Source of the DNA: a virus
Length of the DNA: 64,000 bases
Strand: one strand, 5' to 3'
Virus record (IMG/VR): IMGVR_UViG_3300042301_002170
Shown here piece by piece: positions 2,680 to 35,614 of this stretch; within the stretch, counting starts at the first letter, position 1; each line of letters opens with the position of its first letter. A program made the position numbers and the translations under genes. Under the pieces are notes generated by a model. It was not told the DNA's origin. It worked only from the letters and a program-made list of their open reading frames with translations, and did not search any database.

Positions 2680-3876
2680 ATGTCTGTAAACACATACTGG
2701 TCAGGTTCAGTATCTGGCTCATTTATATCGGGTTCATCTACTCCTTTTGGAATTTACGATTCAGATACTGAGTTTAGAATTGATGCACCCAAAACTGCAA
2801 CATGGGTAGCAAAACGATTGGGTTGGCCAATTGTAAATATTGAATTGGATAATGACCAAATATTTACTTGTTTTGAAGAATCTGTTTCAGAGTATTCGGC
2901 ACAAATAAACCAATTTAATCTTCGTAATAACCTTGATATTTTAAGAGGACAACCAAAGGGGAGAGTTGCAAACTTTTCTCAAACACTTGTAGATGGTTCA
3001 TTTTTACCTACTGCAGTTCGTATGGCACAACAATATGGAACTTTGGCAGGAGTTGGAGGTTCAACATCTATTAAGAAAGCATATGTAACTCTAACATCAT
3101 CGGTTCAAATATATGATATAATGGAAGGTGCAACTGATGTAGAATCGGGTCTTTCTTTTGGAGCAATATTTAGTGGTTCATCCACAATTGATGTTACAAG
3201 AGTTTATCACGAAGCAGTTCCTGCAATTACTCGTTTCTTTGACCCATATTCAGTTGGAGCTCAAGGTACATTGAATTTAATGAGTGAGTTAGGATTTGGT
3301 AATTACTCTCCTGCGGCACAATTCTTAATGATGCCTTTATATGAGGATGTTCTAAGAATGCAACATATTGAATTTAATGACCACATTCGTAAATCGGCAC
3401 ATTCATTTAATATAGTAGATAATAAATTAGAAATATTCCCCGTTCCTTCTATAAATCATCCAGAAAGAATATACTTTGAGTATATTAGTAGAGATGAATT
3501 TGAACATGATTCTCAAACAATTCAAGCAGATTCACTTTCGGATTATTCAGATATTCCATACGATTTCATTCAATATTCAAACATAAATGATGTTGGTAAA
3601 CAATGGATTCGTAAGTACACGTTGGCTCTCTCTAAAGAGTTACTAGGGGCAATTAGAGAGAAGTATTCATCTATCCCTATACCTGATGCAGAAATCTCTT
3701 TAGATGGGGCAGCATTGAGAGCAGAGGCACAGGTAGAGAAAGATATGCTAATTACCCAATTAAGAGAAAACTTAGATGAGATGAGTAGAAAGAATGTGAT
3801 GGAAAATAAAGCACATGAATCCACTCACCATCAGGAAATGCTAAGAAAAGTTCCTTTAAGATTATATGTAGGATAA
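2680..3876 (+). CDS. Neck/head-tail adaptor protein (gp13-like)
   Basis: Position after the capsid gene. Motifs LGWPIVNIELDNDQI and WIRKYTLALSKELLG.IR.KY..IP.P.....LDG..L resemble gp13-type neck proteins. Confidence 0.7.
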   Translation: MSVNTYWSGSVSGSFISGSSTPFGIYDSDTEFRIDAPKTATWVAKRLGWPIVNIELDNDQIFTCFEESVSEYSAQINQFNLRNNLDILRGQPKGRVANFSQTLVDGSFLPTAVRMAQQYGTLAGVGGSTSIKKAYVTLTSSVQIYDIMEGATDVESGLSFGAIFSGSSTIDVTRVYHEAVPAITRFFDPYSVGAQGTLNLMSELGFGNYSPAAQFLMMPLYEDVLRMQHIEFNDHIRKSAHSFNIVDNKLEIFPVPSINHPERIYFEYISRDEFEHDSQTIQADSLSDYSDIPYDFIQYSNINDVGKQWIRKYTLALSKELLGAIREKYSSIPIPDAEISLDGAALRAEAQVEKDMLITQLRENLDEMSRKNVMENKAHESTHHQEMLRKVPLRLYVG

Positions 3877-3877
3877 T

Positions 3878-4333
3878 ATGCCAAAGTTTTCAATAGGTAG
3901 AGATTTAGATTTTTTTCATAGTATTGCCAGAGAATTGGTAGATACTGTGATAGAAAATACTTTTGTATTGTTTAAAATAGATTTAAATTCTACAACAGTA
4001 AATATTTACGGAGAATCGTTAAACAAAACTTGGCATCCTGGTGTTGAACTATTTGGTTTAGTAGATAAAGACCCGGAAGGAGTTACATATGAGGGATTTG
4101 GTTCTGAAGCCACTCAAACTATGACTTTTAAAGTTGATAGAGAATTGTGTGAAGAACGAAAAGTATATCCGGAAATTGGTGATGTTATATATTACGATGA
4201 TTCTTATTATGAAATTGATAATACAAATGAAATTCAGTTTGTAGCAGGTTCTCCTGATAATAATTGGAGTATTGTAATATCATCATTTGAAGTAAGTAAA
4301 TCGAATCTAAACATAGAAAAAAGAATAGATTAA
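3878..4333 (+). CDS. Head closure/neck protein (gp14-like)
   Basis: Synteny after the neck gene. Motifs NIYGES, FG, YPEIGDVIYY and YYEI fit head-closure proteins. Confidence 0.6.
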   Translation: MPKFSIGRDLDFFHSIARELVDTVIENTFVLFKIDLNSTTVNIYGESLNKTWHPGVELFGLVDKDPEGVTYEGFGSEATQTMTFKVDRELCEERKVYPEIGDVIYYDDSYYEIDNTNEIQFVAGSPDNNWSIVISSFEVSKSNLNIEKRID

Positions 4334-30720: not shown

Positions 30721-31209
30721 ATGCCAGAAATATTAGAATTTGACAAGATATTTTATAAGAATTTTGAACCAAAGCTTGGTAATAGATTCATTATGGAAAT
30801 CAATGGTATCGAATCATACATCATCAAAACTGCAAGTAGACCAACATTTACTTCGGAAATAGTTGAATTAGACCATATCAACGTAAAGCGTAAGATAAAG
30901 GGAAAATCTAACTGGGATGATATGAATATCACACTTTATGACCCAATCGTTCCATCAGGAGCACAACAAGTTATGGAGTGGATTAGAACATCACACGAAT
31001 CATTAACGGGTAGAGATGGATACGCAGCGTTCTATAAGAAGGATATTACTTTCTATTTGTTAGGACCAGTTGGTGATAAAGTAGAACAATGGACAATCAA
31101 AGGAGCATTCATTACATCGGCAAACTTTGGTGAGTTGGATTGGGCTTCAAACGACCCTGTATCAATTGAATTAACTTTAACATTTGATTACGCAGTATTA
31201 GAGTACTAA
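30721..31209 (+). CDS. gp19: Tail tube protein
   Basis: Directly after the sheath. FEPK..NRF, KIKGKSNWDDMNITLYD, WTIKGAFITSANFGELDW, LTFDYA. Confidence 0.9.
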   Translation: MPEILEFDKIFYKNFEPKLGNRFIMEINGIESYIIKTASRPTFTSEIVELDHINVKRKIKGKSNWDDMNITLYDPIVPSGAQQVMEWIRTSHESLTGRDGYAAFYKKDITFYLLGPVGDKVEQWTIKGAFITSANFGELDWASNDPVSIELTLTFDYAVLEY

Positions 31210-31231: not shown

Positions 31232-31265
31232 AGAGGGGAGCAGAGATGTTCCCCTTTATTTTTTT
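31232..31265 (+). terminator. Intrinsic terminator after the tail tube gene
   Basis: AGAGGGGAGCA-GAGA-TGTTCCCCTTT followed by a T tract; sequence resembles the capsid terminator. Confidence 0.85.
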
Positions 31266-31305: not shown

Positions 31306-32118
31306 ATGGAAGAACAATTAGAACAACAAGTTACGAGAGGTTTAGGGGCATCCCAAACTACAACTCAAAAAAACTTCCCATTTGCAACGGAAGTTATTTC
31401 ATTACCATCTAAAGGATTAGCATATCCAGAGAGTTCACCTTTATCAAGAGGAGAAATAACTCTTAAATTAATGACTGCAAAAGAAGAAGATATTTTAACT
31501 TCTACAAATTTAATCCGTAAAGGAATACATTTGGATAGATTATTAGAATCAATTGTAGTAGAACCTGGAGTTAATATCAATGACCTTTTAATTGGTGATA
31601 AAAACGCAATTTTGATTATCACAAGAATGTTAGCATTTGGAGCTGAATATGATATTACAGTAACAGATTCAATATCGGAAGAAGATGTGGTTGTAAAAGT
31701 TGATTTATCTAAATTAAAAACAAAAGAAATTGATTATTCTTTATTAAATAGAAACAACGAATACGAATTTACTTTACCAAAATCAAAAACTGAAATTAAA
31801 TTTAAATTACTTAATCATGGTGATGAACTTGCAATTCAAAAAGATGTTGAAGCAAGTGAAAAAATATTAAAACAAGGAAACGAAATTACTACTAGATTTA
31901 GAAGAATCATCACAGAGGTAGAAGGTAATAGAGATTTAGGATATATCAGTAACTTTGTTTCAAATAGATTGTTAGCAATGGATTCAAAAGCATTGAGAAA
32001 ACATATTTTATCAATTACACCTGATTTAGATTTAATTACAGAATATGAAAATTCAGTAGGTGAGACGGAGGCTCTCCGAATCCCGTTTGGGGTAGACTTT
32101 TTTTACCCTGCCGAGTAA
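31306..32118 (+). CDS. Tail/baseplate-hub assembly chaperone (gp26-like; lambda G position)
   Basis: LPSKG..YP, TAKEEDIL, LLIGDKNAIL...R..AFG..Y, ends IPFGVDFFYPAE. Located between tube and tape measure genes. Confidence 0.75.
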   Translation: MEEQLEQQVTRGLGASQTTTQKNFPFATEVISLPSKGLAYPESSPLSRGEITLKLMTAKEEDILTSTNLIRKGIHLDRLLESIVVEPGVNINDLLIGDKNAILIITRMLAFGAEYDITVTDSISEEDVVVKVDLSKLKTKEIDYSLLNRNNEYEFTLPKSKTEIKFKLLNHGDELAIQKDVEASEKILKQGNEITTRFRRIITEVEGNRDLGYISNFVSNRLLAMDSKALRKHILSITPDLDLITEYENSVGETEALRIPFGVDFFYPAE

Positions 32119-32326
32119 TTATTCCGTATTATTACATCAAACCATTTTTCAAATGATTTATTTTGCGAATGGTGGGTTTACTTGGCATGACTTATATCTT
32201 ATGCCAACTAAACTTCGTGAGTTTTATTGGAAAGAATTATTGAAAACAAAAGAGGAAGAAAGAGAGCAAATAGAAAAATCTAAACCATCAAACGCAAATA
32301 ATTCATCTAAAACTCGAAGAAGATGA
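32105..32326 (+). CDS. Unannotated overlapping ORF (lambda T position, gp51-like); probable frameshift extension of the previous gene
   Basis: Not in the ORF track. Reads TLPSNYSVLLHQTIFQMIYFANGGFTWHDLYLMPTKLREFYWKELLKTKEEEREQIEK...RRR-stop in the +1 frame right after a T7 run. First ATG is at 32153. Confidence 0.75.
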   Translation, partial: TLPSNYSVLLHQTIFQMIYFANGGFTWHDLYLMPTKLREFYWKELLKTKEEEREQIEKSKPSNANNSSKTRRR

Positions 32327-32361: not shown

Positions 32362-32607
32362 ATGTCTAAAAGAGTATTATCAGAAGGAATTTTAGATAAA
32401 TTCTTTTCTTTATTTTTAAAAGCAAAATCACAGAATAAAGAATCTGCATGGTTATCTCGTCTAAGAGATAAAGACCCTGAATTAGCAGATATATGGTCTG
32501 GATGGGATAGTGATATGAATAAACTTTTAGCTGCAACCCAAGCAATGGCAAAAAAAAGTAATTTAGATACAACGGATATTGATACCGTAATTAAAAAATA
32601 TAGCTAA
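32362..32607 (+). CDS. Small late protein of unknown function
   Basis: TATTTATA at 32327-32334; N-terminal VLSE motif; fills the gap before the tape measure gene. Confidence 0.6.
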   Translation: MSKRVLSEGILDKFFSLFLKAKSQNKESAWLSRLRDKDPELADIWSGWDSDMNKLLAATQAMAKKSNLDTTDIDTVIKKYS

Positions 32608-32617
32608 TATAGAATAA

Positions 32618-35614
32618 ATGGCTGCTAAAAAAAAATCAACATCCACTACTAATTCGGTTAAAGCACAAAAAGACCAGGGAACTGATGGTTTAGACAGTGC
32701 GTTTGCTAAACAAAATGTCCAAGCAAAAGAAGCTGAAAAATTAACAGAAGCAGTAAACAAGAAAAAAGAAGCTCAATTAGTTATACAAGATAGACTAAAT
32801 GAAAAATTAAAACAAGCAGTTGATTTAGAAGAAGCACAAAAAACGGCGGTTGGAAAACTTTCCACAATGTGGGGAGATTTTTCAAGTAAAGCCGCAGAAT
32901 ACCATCAAGATGTCAAAGATGGTTTAATGACCCAAGAGCAGGCCAATAAGAAGTTAAACGCAATGCGTGTTAATTTTGATAGAATGGCTAAATCAGCCGG
33001 ACTTAATAAAAAAGAAAACAAAGAGATAGTAGACATATTGAAACTGATGGGTAACGAAATGTTATCCGTTCAAAAAGCATATGATAAAACTGCTCAAAAA
33101 GCTGCACTATTAAATACTGCATTAGATGCAGTTGGTTCTAGTGGAATTCCATTAATGCAAGAATTGAGTGAAGTTCTTAAAAATATCGGTAAAAATGCCG
33201 AAGGAACAAAACTAGCAATGACCGCATTAGGTGCAGCTATCGGTGGTCTATCTATGAAATACTTTGGTGCGGAATTAGAAGCCGGAACAAAAGCATTAAA
33301 TGATGCAGCTCAGGGTGATTTGGATACATCCAGAAAAATGTTTGAGCTTGAAAATAAACGTGGATTTTTAAAACAAAGAGTTGGATTAGAAGTTCAAAAA
33401 AATGCAGCAGATGGTGAACAAACTCTTGCAAAGCTTGGACAAAAACGTGGATTTGTACAAAAACAAATTGGATTAGAAGTAAGCCAAAATAGTATAGATA
33501 CTGCCAATGAGGTAAATAGATTAACTATTGAAGCTGCAAATTCATCTCAAAGAGCAGCAATACAATTTTCAGCACAATTACAAACGGGTGCAGCAGAATT
33601 TAAAGCTGCTGCTAAAACTGCACTTTATGGTAAAGGTATAGGTTCAATTGGATATGGTGCAGCACAAATGCAATTAGCAGGAGTAGGTGCTGAAAATGTA
33701 GCAGCTTCTTTAACAACTGCAACAAAAGCATTGGGTACTAAAGTTTCATCTGATTTTGCAGCTGATATGTCAGTATTGGAAAAAAGAACAGGTCAATCTT
33801 CTGAAAATGTATCAGGTATGGTATCCTTTTTTAGAAGAATGGGAAAACTTACAAATGAGAGTGCATTGAATATGACGGAGGGTATGCGAGCAATGGCAGA
33901 TTCTGCGGGTATAGATTTAGGTGGATATATGGAAGAGGTTGCACAAGCATCCAAAGAAGCATTAGGATACCAAATCAAATCAGGTCCTGCATTGCAAAAG
34001 CAAGTAGCATATGCACAACAATTAGGGGTTTCATTTGGGGATATAGCAAAAGCAGGTAAGAGCATGGTTTTGAACTATAAAGATAGTATCAAAAAAGAAA
34101 TGGAATTATCTGCAATGTTAGGTAGAAATGTAAACCTATCAGAAGCAAGAGCATTATTTTCGCAAGGTAAAACCGATGAAGCTTTAAAATCCATTAAAGC
34201 ACAAGGTTTAGACCCTAAGGCAATGAATATGTTCCAACAAGAAGCACTCTCTCAAGCATTGGGTGGTTTGGATTTGGATTCAATACAAAAAATTGCAACT
34301 GGAAGTGCTAAAGATGTAAGTGCACAAACGGGAAATGTAAAAGAGGGGAATAAGGGGTTTTTAAAAACAACACAATCTGCACAATCTACATTAGCATCAC
34401 AAACGGCATCTATACAAGCACAGACTGCAATTGTAGATGCTAAATTATCGGGTCAAATAACTGATGCATATTTGAAATCTTCCGGATATAAAAAATATCA
34501 AGATGCTTTAATAAAACAACAAGAAGACCAGGCAAAATTAGAAACTCTAATAACAGAAACATATTTAAAATCACCTGCATATCTAAAGTATCAATCATTT
34601 TTAATCAATCAACAAAAATTAGAAGAAGCATTAAATAACGCAGAAAACAAAAAATTTATCACAAGTGCAGACGCAATTAAAAATGCAGCAGAATCTGCTA
34701 GATTGGGTATTGATAGAATGTTTAGTGAAAATTGGAGAACTGGATTAGCAACTATTGCCGGTGGAGTTGCGGGTAATGTTTTATCTAAATTGTTTGGTGG
34801 AGTTCAAGATGTGCGTATTGTTGACGGAGGTGGACCTATGTCGGATAGTAGTTCATCAGATGGTCCTAAAACAAAAGATGGTAAACCTGATAGGAGATAT
34901 AAAAGTAATAGACCAAGTACTCCAAAACCTGGAGGGAGTAAACTGTCAAAAATATTTAATTCTGCTAAAAATTTATTACCAAAAATTACTAATTCATTAA
35001 AACCTACCAGTTTATTAAAAGGTGGTGCAAAACTACTTAAAGGTGGATTACCTGGTATTATTGGTGGTTTAGCATTGAATGCTTTTGCAGAAAATCAAGC
35101 TGCAAAAGGAAATAAAAAAACGGCAGCAGGTGCTGATATTGCAAGTTCTGCATTATCTGGAGCAGGTTATGGTGCAATGATAGGTTCGATTGTTCCAGGT
35201 GTTGGTAACGTTGTTGGTGGTGCAGTTGGTGGTATATTGGGTGGAGCATATGGCTTGTATCAAAACTGGGGAACAATGACTGCTCCTGCAGCAGCTCCAA
35301 AAGGTGCACCATCAAAAGCTAAAACACCTCCCAAAGCAGGGACAACTACTGTTGTAGGAACACCTGGAGCACCGGGTGGTGTGGCATCGGTACCAGCGGG
35401 GATGTTATCTGCGGCGGAATATCAAGTAAAATTACAAATAAAAATGGTTCAACTAATGGGTGTAAGTGCTGCATTATTGGAAGCTATCTTATTGGAAACT
35501 GATTCTAAACCTGTTCTTAGTGTTAATGGAATTAAATTAAACCAACAATTAATGGCATCAAGTTTAAAAACAATGGCAGTTAATAGAAGAGATGGTGGAA
35601 CTCCGAGAATGTAA
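32618..35614 (+). CDS. Tape measure protein
   Basis: 998 aa, Ala/Lys/Gln-rich and helical, with C-terminal Gly-zipper hydrophobic segments (GAMIGSIVPGVG.VVGGAVGGILGG). Canonical position after tube and chaperones. Confidence 0.85.
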   Translation: MAAKKKSTSTTNSVKAQKDQGTDGLDSAFAKQNVQAKEAEKLTEAVNKKKEAQLVIQDRLNEKLKQAVDLEEAQKTAVGKLSTMWGDFSSKAAEYHQDVKDGLMTQEQANKKLNAMRVNFDRMAKSAGLNKKENKEIVDILKLMGNEMLSVQKAYDKTAQKAALLNTALDAVGSSGIPLMQELSEVLKNIGKNAEGTKLAMTALGAAIGGLSMKYFGAELEAGTKALNDAAQGDLDTSRKMFELENKRGFLKQRVGLEVQKNAADGEQTLAKLGQKRGFVQKQIGLEVSQNSIDTANEVNRLTIEAANSSQRAAIQFSAQLQTGAAEFKAAAKTALYGKGIGSIGYGAAQMQLAGVGAENVAASLTTATKALGTKVSSDFAADMSVLEKRTGQSSENVSGMVSFFRRMGKLTNESALNMTEGMRAMADSAGIDLGGYMEEVAQASKEALGYQIKSGPALQKQVAYAQQLGVSFGDIAKAGKSMVLNYKDSIKKEMELSAMLGRNVNLSEARALFSQGKTDEALKSIKAQGLDPKAMNMFQQEALSQALGGLDLDSIQKIATGSAKDVSAQTGNVKEGNKGFLKTTQSAQSTLASQTASIQAQTAIVDAKLSGQITDAYLKSSGYKKYQDALIKQQEDQAKLETLITETYLKSPAYLKYQSFLINQQKLEEALNNAENKKFITSADAIKNAAESARLGIDRMFSENWRTGLATIAGGVAGNVLSKLFGGVQDVRIVDGGGPMSDSSSSDGPKTKDGKPDRRYKSNRPSTPKPGGSKLSKIFNSAKNLLPKITNSLKPTSLLKGGAKLLKGGLPGIIGGLALNAFAENQAAKGNKKTAAGADIASSALSGAGYGAMIGSIVPGVGNVVGGAVGGILGGAYGLYQNWGTMTAPAAAPKGAPSKAKTPPKAGTTTVVGTPGAPGGVASVPAGMLSAAEYQVKLQIKMVQLMGVSAALLEAILLETDSKPVLSVNGIKLNQQLMASSLKTMAVNRRDGGTPRM

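Follow-up and report, generated by a model that had tools for sequence, protein, structure and literature searches.

Frameshifting in tail assembly chaperone genes is among the most conserved viral recoding events. Long-tailed phages, 'except T4', keep the G-T frameshift recognized by Xu, Hendrix and Duda in 2004 (see the review of Atkins et al. 2016, PMC5009743), and in the haloarchaeal myovirus HSTV-2 the shift in the tail chaperone is 'very likely +1' (PMC5009743). In T4, gp26 and gp51 are listed as hub assembly chaperones (Leiman et al. 2010, PMC3004832). Here, a 64,000-nt stretch of DNA from an uncultured aquatic phage (IMG/VR record IMGVR_UViG_3300042301_002170, hereafter the window) was analysed. 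It carries a gp26-like gene directly between the tail tube and tape measure genes, the G/GT position that the sequence-only reading of this DNA had pointed out and that the gene also occupies in relatives. At the end of this gene, a programmed +1 ribosomal frameshift at UUU_U would give a G/GT-type pair of proteins of 30.4 and 38.8 kDa, a reading to which we assign a probability of about 0.72. No published paper or database record of a frameshift in gp26/gp51-family genes was found, and the +1 frameshift in this family is most probably a variant of the G/GT system that is new to the literature.

Conservation of the proposed shift site and its reading frame

The gp26-like open reading frame (ORF) of the window ends GAC TTT TTT TAC CCT GCC GAG TAA, with its stop codon at 32116-32118 and its seven consecutive Ts forming the candidate shift site (Table 1). 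In the +1 frame, a TAG at 32093-32095 is followed by an open frame from 32096 to the TGA at 32324-32326, which reads FFTLPSNYSVLLHQTIFQMIYFANGGFTWHDLYLMPTKLREFY... (FFTLPSNYSVLLHQTIFQMIYFANGGFTW...) and counts 73 codons from ACC 32105, leaving 32096 to 32115 as the possible shift interval. The first ATG of this +1 ORF, at 32153, is its 17th codon. The sequence-only reading, whose coordinates and translation proved right on re-reading the sequence, had described this hidden 73-codon ORF after the T7 run and its late first ATG. It had also stated that the -1 frame closes within a few codons, but this frame stays open for 19 codons, up to the TGA at 32154-32156; its register is not conserved. The junction pattern in the window alone is weak evidence and not beyond chance, because the window is only 33% G+C, contains seven runs of T7 or longer on the plus strand (for example also at 3910 and 14898) and has at least 65 open +1 codons after 7 of its 47 long ORFs. 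Its significance comes from comparison.

The comparison set held 158 related loci with 128 distinct junction regions, made up from a first set of three phage records (Flavobacterium phage immuto, Microcystis phage Mel-JY01 and the uncultured LR756508) and 80 IMG/VR loci at 46-91% identity, and from a second scan that added 74 further loci. The extension lies in the +1 register in all 158 loci. The site reads TTT TTT T in 119 of the 128 distinct junctions, Mel-JY01 among them, TTC TTT T in seven, TTT CTT T in one (immuto, where it continues as TTT CTT TGG) and TTT CTA T in one (LR756508), and the re-pairing element YUU_Y is present in every one of them. Common to all members is a P-site codon able to re-pair one base forward, in the form of UUU_U, CUU_U or UUU_C. 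Counted over 83 loci, the Phe codons at the site are TTT in 165 of 166 cases, while 22.6% of Phe codons elsewhere in the same genes are TTC, and third-position entropy falls to 0.10 bits at both site codons from about 1.4-1.9 bits upstream. To judge from this codon bias and drop in entropy, the shift site is selected at the nucleotide level. Both the slippery codons and the +1 register, which the sequence-only reading had proposed to follow in homologues, are retained, and the signal at the end of the gp26-like gene appears from these alignments to be a real, strongly conserved recoding signal.

The same plan is seen in the Firmicute myophages Bacillus HSE3, Streptococcus GXN1 and Listeria LIS04, at identities of only about 27-29%. 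Their 0-frame products end in PEFFRPKFR (HSE3), PEFFRPRFD or GEFFSTRF, their sites read TTC TTT C (HSE3, GXN1) or TTT TTT A, and a +1 ORF of 70-90 codons stands before the tape measure gene.

From about 12 nt after the first T of the site, the most variable position becomes the third base of the +1 frame, so that the wobble periodicity switches frame. The extension is conserved from the site onward (consensus FFTLPxNYSxxLHxxIFxMxYYGNGFxWxDxYxMPxxLRxFY); coding conservation, as the sequence-only reading had suggested checking, starts before any ATG. These patterns bear on the explanation given implicitly by gene callers and by GenBank (immuto gp038, Mel-JY01 WWT39326, HSE3 gp075), namely that no fusion is made and the downstream ORF is a separate small gene with its own start, at ATG 32153 or, behind the TAA, at a non-canonical or re-initiation codon. 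In the GenBank records of immuto, Mel-JY01, HSE3 and LIS04 the extension is annotated as a separate hypothetical gene or not annotated. When a hidden Markov model (HMM) of the extension was searched against 1.84 billion representative proteins, most of the 926 matches were likewise stand-alone calls of 50-120 aa, and Bacteroidota-type hosts need no Shine-Dalgarno sequence, so that such a start is possible from the sequence. A conserved start is nevertheless missing from the comparison set: no ATG precedes the conserved Tyr of the extension in 105 of the 128 junctions, and no ATG, GTG or TTG does so in 51. The first ATG falls on codon 18, on codon 33/34 or is absent; immuto has it only at codon 46, behind the conserved NGG motif, and it is missing from L059, L060 and L080. 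Conservation with +1 periodicity extends to residues ahead of every candidate start, and a separate gene would explain neither the fixed +1 register nor the frozen slippery codons, nor is it easily reconciled with the in-frame fusions described below. The contrary pattern that the sequence-only reading had named, with homologues having the second ORF in varying frames behind a conserved start of its own, was not found. Independent translation of the extension is therefore very unlikely. Under the frameshift reading, phage records and metagenomes would contain hundreds of mis-annotated C-terminal extensions, listed as small 'hypothetical' ORFs behind 'baseplate hub' genes.

Natural fusions and the direction of the proposed slip

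At least ten of the 926 extension matches are proteins of 288-318 aa that carry a gp26-like domain at the N-terminus and the extension domain at the C-terminus, in frame. They align with the predicted +1 product of the window without a gap at the junction (PFGVDFFTLPSNYSVLLHQTIF in the window vs PLGDVFFNLDEYYRLNLHEEIF), and the fusion of about 339 aa anticipated from the sequence alone thus has natural, uninterrupted homologues. A word-indexed protein search returned no in-frame fusions owing to its lower sensitivity; the exhaustive HMM search did find them. In one further locus (L099 2381-3444) the break falls within the gp26-like domain, whose two parts occupy different frames (2381-2902 and 2848-3444); the extension shares the frame of the second part. 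Either the assembly is wrong here or the break point differs.

On the contig of one of the long proteins (L091 4150-5930) two PF12322 genes stand in tandem, the first encoding a 282-aa short paralogue that ends in IPIGVNFLWPDVNS before its stop (...VNFLWPDVNS) and the second a 309-aa long form. A 1052-aa ORF without a family match follows the pair at the expected position of the tape measure gene. A short and a long paralogue are also paired in three more loci (L095, L096, L097), and by HMM the short paralogue of the tandem pairs is closer to the window gene than the long one (E 1e-74 to 1e-99 vs 1e-24 to 1e-51). Each of three near-complete relatives (176, 202 and 274 kb) has a single PF12322 gene. 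All four short paralogues end in NF(F/L)WP and a few further residues, with TTC TTC, TTT ATG, TTT TTC or TTC TTG as motif codons. As the same motif is written in other codons there, the slippery run is not kept where the long form has a gene of its own. The F-F-(Y/W)-P end of the short form, on the other hand, is judged to be at least partly a protein feature, since these non-shifting paralogues keep it as well.

The natural fusions also speak to the direction of the slip. A ribosomal shift of -2 on U UUU UUU, the kind seen in phage Mu, would reach the same frame as +1 and give a 340-aa product with FFF at the junction (IPFGVDFFFTLPS...), in place of the IPFGVDFFTLPSNY... / IPFGVDFFTLPS... predicted for +1. 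The T7 run permits full re-pairing two bases back, and such a shift would account for the conserved first TTT. In the variants TTC TTT T and TTT CTT T, however, the re-pairing would meet UCU or UUC, with mismatches, and in the natural in-frame homologues FF is followed by 10 residues up to an invariant His, as in the +1 product; the -2 product would have one residue more. The +1 shift is favoured over -2 because of this spacing, and we consider a -2 shift very unlikely.

Alternatively, the slip could be transcriptional, with RNA polymerase leaving out one U of the T7 run or adding two, and ribosomes then reading normally through the edited mRNA into the long form. A T7 run at 119 of the 128 junctions is more than a single UUU_U slip needs, and a small hairpin-capable stretch at 32080-32093, 4-5 nt upstream of the run, was flagged as terminator-like and is pairable in 85% of cells. 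Productive transcriptional slippage usually requires runs of 8-9 or more. The run here is at most T7, a long homopolymer is not kept in all members, and runs of only 3-4 Ts are found in nine distinct junctions and in the Firmicute phages, where the +1 ORF is still kept. The pairing of the upstream stretch shows no covariation, is nearly as frequent in shuffles (83.9%) and follows from the conserved I-P-x-G codons; as a stimulator of a ribosomal slip this mini-hairpin was rejected on the same figures. We thus regard transcriptional slippage as unlikely. The sequence-only reading had left +1, -2 and polymerase slippage on the T run side by side; ribosomal +1 is now supported, and the two others have become less likely in view of the variants with 3-4 Ts and the spacing of the fusions.

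In the ribosomal +1 mechanism, most ribosomes would read the 0 frame up to its stop codon and yield the 270-aa short form. A fraction would slip at UUU UUU U, the P-site tRNA-Phe shifting one base forward from UUU to UUU and decoding resuming at ACC 32105, to yield a 339-aa long form with an additional helical domain of 73 residues. Lambda gpG/gpGT offers an analogy: the part common to both forms would bind the tape measure protein, the additional domain would bring in a further tail component, probably the tube or hub, and the virion would retain neither form. That the slip is ribosomal and +1 we infer, as we do its efficiency and binding partners; the ribosomal +1 slip is favoured because the variants with few Ts permit +1 re-pairing but neither polymerase slippage nor -2. 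UUU-pyrimidine sites were reportedly described as +1-prone in E. coli by Schwartz and Curran in 1997.

Several points weigh against this mechanism. For all members the evidence consists of sequence comparison and predicted models. At the A site, the 0 frame has an ordinary sense codon (UAC, UAU or UGG), neither a stop nor demonstrably rare. Neither a Shine-Dalgarno-like nor a conserved purine-rich element was found beside the site, the conserved GAGG being 30 nt off, and no RNA structure with covariation was found at the site. The strict keeping of both TTT codons exceeds what a single UUU_U requires and would fit polymerase slippage or -2 as well. With regard to the chaperone family treated below, the fold matches are modest (Z 4.6-6.3), and the extension compared alone with the gp51 C-terminus gives no significant match (E 0.04-0.09). 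On the two TTT codons we can only guess: they could be frozen through two successive chances to slip or through an E-site effect.

With respect to RNA structure at the site, RNAalifold gave no consensus pairs for 28 diverse junctions, and Rfam had no match at the site. A hairpin enclosing the T run (GGGUA/UACCC) was rejected as a candidate, being paired in 69.6% vs 70.7% in shuffles and lacking covariation. In most loci the GAGG stands about 30 nt before the site (32070-32074 in the window), written as a GAG (Glu) codon plus a codon beginning with G, although in such A+T-rich genomes one would expect GAA; the distance is too great for a classical Shine-Dalgarno stimulator.

Likeness to the chaperone fold and the relation to T4 gp26 and gp51

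The 270-aa protein matches Pfam PF12322 (T4_baseplate) with 28.0 bits, above the curated cut-off of 24.5 (E 2.1e-6, profile positions 10-134 of 219), as well as phrog_150 'baseplate hub' (E 1e-8), a match that extends to profile positions 21-234 of 282 when the fusion is used. The 0-frame protein was modelled with AlphaFold2 (AF2) at a predicted local distance difference test score (pLDDT) of 85.9 and a predicted template modelling score (pTM) of 0.81. Compared with 48,161 representative chains, its three best matches were 3fgx_B (Z 6.3, root-mean-square deviation (rmsd) 4.1, 88 aligned, model residues 18-120), 3klu_A (YqbN; Z 5.1, rmsd 3.6, 78 aligned, model residues 151-236) and 2ob9_B (HK97 tail assembly chaperone; Z 4.6, rmsd 4.0, 93 aligned). 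Ranks 1-3 are thus taken by the solved chaperones HK97 gp13, YqbN and Rbstp2171, all with Z below 8, a common background level for the tool. All three structures are described as tail assembly chaperones (PMC9603447). As far as the model can be relied on, it is unlikely by chance that one class fills all three top ranks, and the model ranges suggest two tandem chaperone-like domains in the 270-aa protein. The extension is predicted to form three helices (pLDDT 83.7), and its fold search returned generic helical matches only (Z at most 5.2). Foldseek gave no match at E <= 0.001, searches of PDB sequences with both profiles gave none, and NCBIfam has no model for any of these proteins.

T4 gp26 (208 aa) and gp51 (249 aa) match PF12322 end to end, gp51 having about 48 additional C-terminal residues. 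As in the window, the short form ends in FF shortly before the stop (...VDFFYPAE in the window, ...KEFFELL in gp26), and gp51, like the long form, combines the same domain with a C-terminal extension. The end of gp26 is encoded by GAG TTC TTT GAG TTA CTA TAA, with gene 25 following in the -1 frame; T4 gp26 has no long +1 ORF, its +1 frame closing after about ten codons. Unlike the window, T4 encodes gp26 and gp51 in separate genes that are transcribed divergently and lie apart from the tube gene. The proteins also differ in their cysteines. Two CxxC pairs (zinc-ribbon-like), nearly invariant across T4 gp26 and gp51, the Firmicute homologues and the long forms encoded in frame, were lost in the clade of the window, whose protein, unlike T4 and most relatives, has no Cys and carries D/S and N/G at the aligned positions.

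When the profile of the long form was aligned with a profile of 27 gp51 homologues, hhalign gave a probability of 90.9% (E 1.2e-6) over 218 columns, running through the FF junction into the gp51 extension. The best alignment between extension and gp51 always falls on the same collinear stretch, GF..vY.MP..lR.FY vs nY..sI.MIP.ER, a weak match, and with single T4 gp26 or gp51 sequences neither pairwise BLASTP nor hhalign was significant. Profile comparison in this way demonstrates an N-terminal domain shared by the short and long forms and T4 gp26/gp51. That the short form is gp26-like and the long form gp51-like is put forward as an architectural equivalence only, in view of the non-significant comparison of the extension alone, and homology of the extensions is not proven. 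The link from gp26/gp51 to G/GT drawn in the sequence-only reading accordingly holds for the shared PF12322 domain; as regards the extension and the gp51 C-terminus, the match is collinear but lacks statistical support. The precomputed Pfam annotation of T4 gp51 homologues (P0155-P0246) lists PF28602.1 beside PF12322, and this entry presumably models the gp51 C-terminal extension. In cyanophages, the protein called 'gp51' has only about 20% of the T4 length and matches the gp51 C-terminal region (Sullivan et al. 2010, PMC3037559), which fits the picture of short and long chaperones.

Because the gp26-like gene of the window stands in the G/GT position with a conserved +1 site, and relatives encode the two forms separately, the comparison suggests that the poorly understood gp26 and gp51 of T4 are its G and GT. 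A broader proposal, to which we give slightly better than even odds, is that the whole PF12322 family is the T4-type counterpart of lambda G/GT. Short and long forms would then be universal among long-tailed phages, supplied interchangeably by a +1 frameshift (the clade of the window, some Firmicute myophages), by two tandem paralogues or by two unlinked genes (T4). If true, the exception in 'all long-tailed phages except T4' falls, and a natural series becomes available for the gain, direction switch and loss of recoding signals.

The locus and its comparison with described systems

The gene order of the window is sheath, tube, gp26-like gene, hidden +1 ORF, 81-aa ORF and tape measure gene (Table 1), and the succession of sheath, tube, gp26-like and tape measure genes is shared by immuto, Mel-JY01, HSE3 and LIS04. 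No tRNA genes were found within the window.

Table 1 Features of the tail gene region in the window.
Feature	Position	Strand	Basis
Tail sheath gene, 743 aa	28441..30672	+	Pfam Phage_sheath_1 and Phage_sheath_1C; phrog_23, E 7e-68
Tail tube gene, 162 aa, T4 gp19-like	30721..31209	+	Pfam PF06841, E 9e-11; phrog_4542, E 1e-30
0-frame ORF, putative short chaperone form, gp26-like, 270 aa, 30.4 kDa, ending ...IPFGVDFFYPAE before the stop	31306..32118	+	PF12322; phrog_150; AF2 model
Candidate shift site TTT TTT T	32098..32104	+	T7 in 119/128 distinct junctions; near-invariant synonymous positions
Minimal conserved element UUU_U	32101-32104	+	Junction comparison
+1-frame extension, 73 codons and TGA	32105..32326	+	+1 in all 158 loci; HMM matches 926 proteins; predicted three-helix domain
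Putative long form, 339 aa, 38.8 kDa	31306-32103 joined to 32105-32323	+	Predicted +1 fusion
81-aa ORF between chaperone gene and tape measure gene	32362..32607	+	ORF list
Tape measure protein gene, 998 aa	32618..35614	+	phrog_23574 and phrog_167, tail length tape measure

The 81-aa ORF has no Pfam or PHROG match, and its membership in the chaperone system is not supported by the data; a small gene resembling it is present in Mel-JY01 (L002 4051-4266) and absent from immuto. Between the tube and chaperone genes, at 31233-31265, lies a G+C-rich hairpin (GGGGA...TCCCC) with a 10-nt loop, followed by TTTATTTTTTT. From its sequence it looks like an intrinsic terminator or attenuator, which would make the chaperone and tape measure genes less strongly expressed than the tube gene; the terminator scan does not list loops of more than 8 nt, hence its absence from the listing. 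The longest homopolymer near the locus is an in-frame A9 run (AAA AAA AAA, codons 4-6) at the start of the tape measure gene (32627-32635), a possible slippage-prone spot.

Among described systems, lambda gpG/gpGT has the same place as the window gene, flanked by the tube and tape measure genes. Common to both are also a minor long form (predicted in the window) with the same N-terminus, a C-terminal domain drawn from an overlapping ORF without a start of its own, and a register that very divergent sequences retain. The three top structural matches of the window protein, at modest Z values, are the solved chaperones of the G/GT class. The predicted shift is +1 at UUU_U, whereas the lambda type is -1 on an X XXY YYZ heptamer, and with 270 aa the window protein has about twice the lambda-type length, belongs to PF12322 and apparently contains two chaperone-like domains. 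No sequence similarity to lambda G or T was detected.

The logic of P-site re-pairing is that of prfB (release factor 2), whose +1 sites are CUU_U or, in a minority of species, UUU_U (Atkins et al. 2016, PMC5009743); in the family of the window UUU_U prevails in most members and CUU_U is found in immuto. Unlike prfB, the window lacks a stop codon in frame at the A site, a Shine-Dalgarno-like stimulator (which prfB has 3 nt upstream) and autoregulation, its purpose by analogy being a fixed ratio of two products. The UUU-UGG heptamer of 49 of the 128 junctions is also the proposed +1 site of Yersinia yopN-tyeA, an unproven one, as its mutation in Y. pseudotuberculosis did not eliminate the hybrid protein (PMC3789692). 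The family thus offers a large natural set of putative +1 sites, UUU_U followed by UAC or UGG, without the usual stimulators, which would be useful for learning how such slips are set. HSTV-2, finally, resembles the window in having its probable +1 shift in the same gene position.

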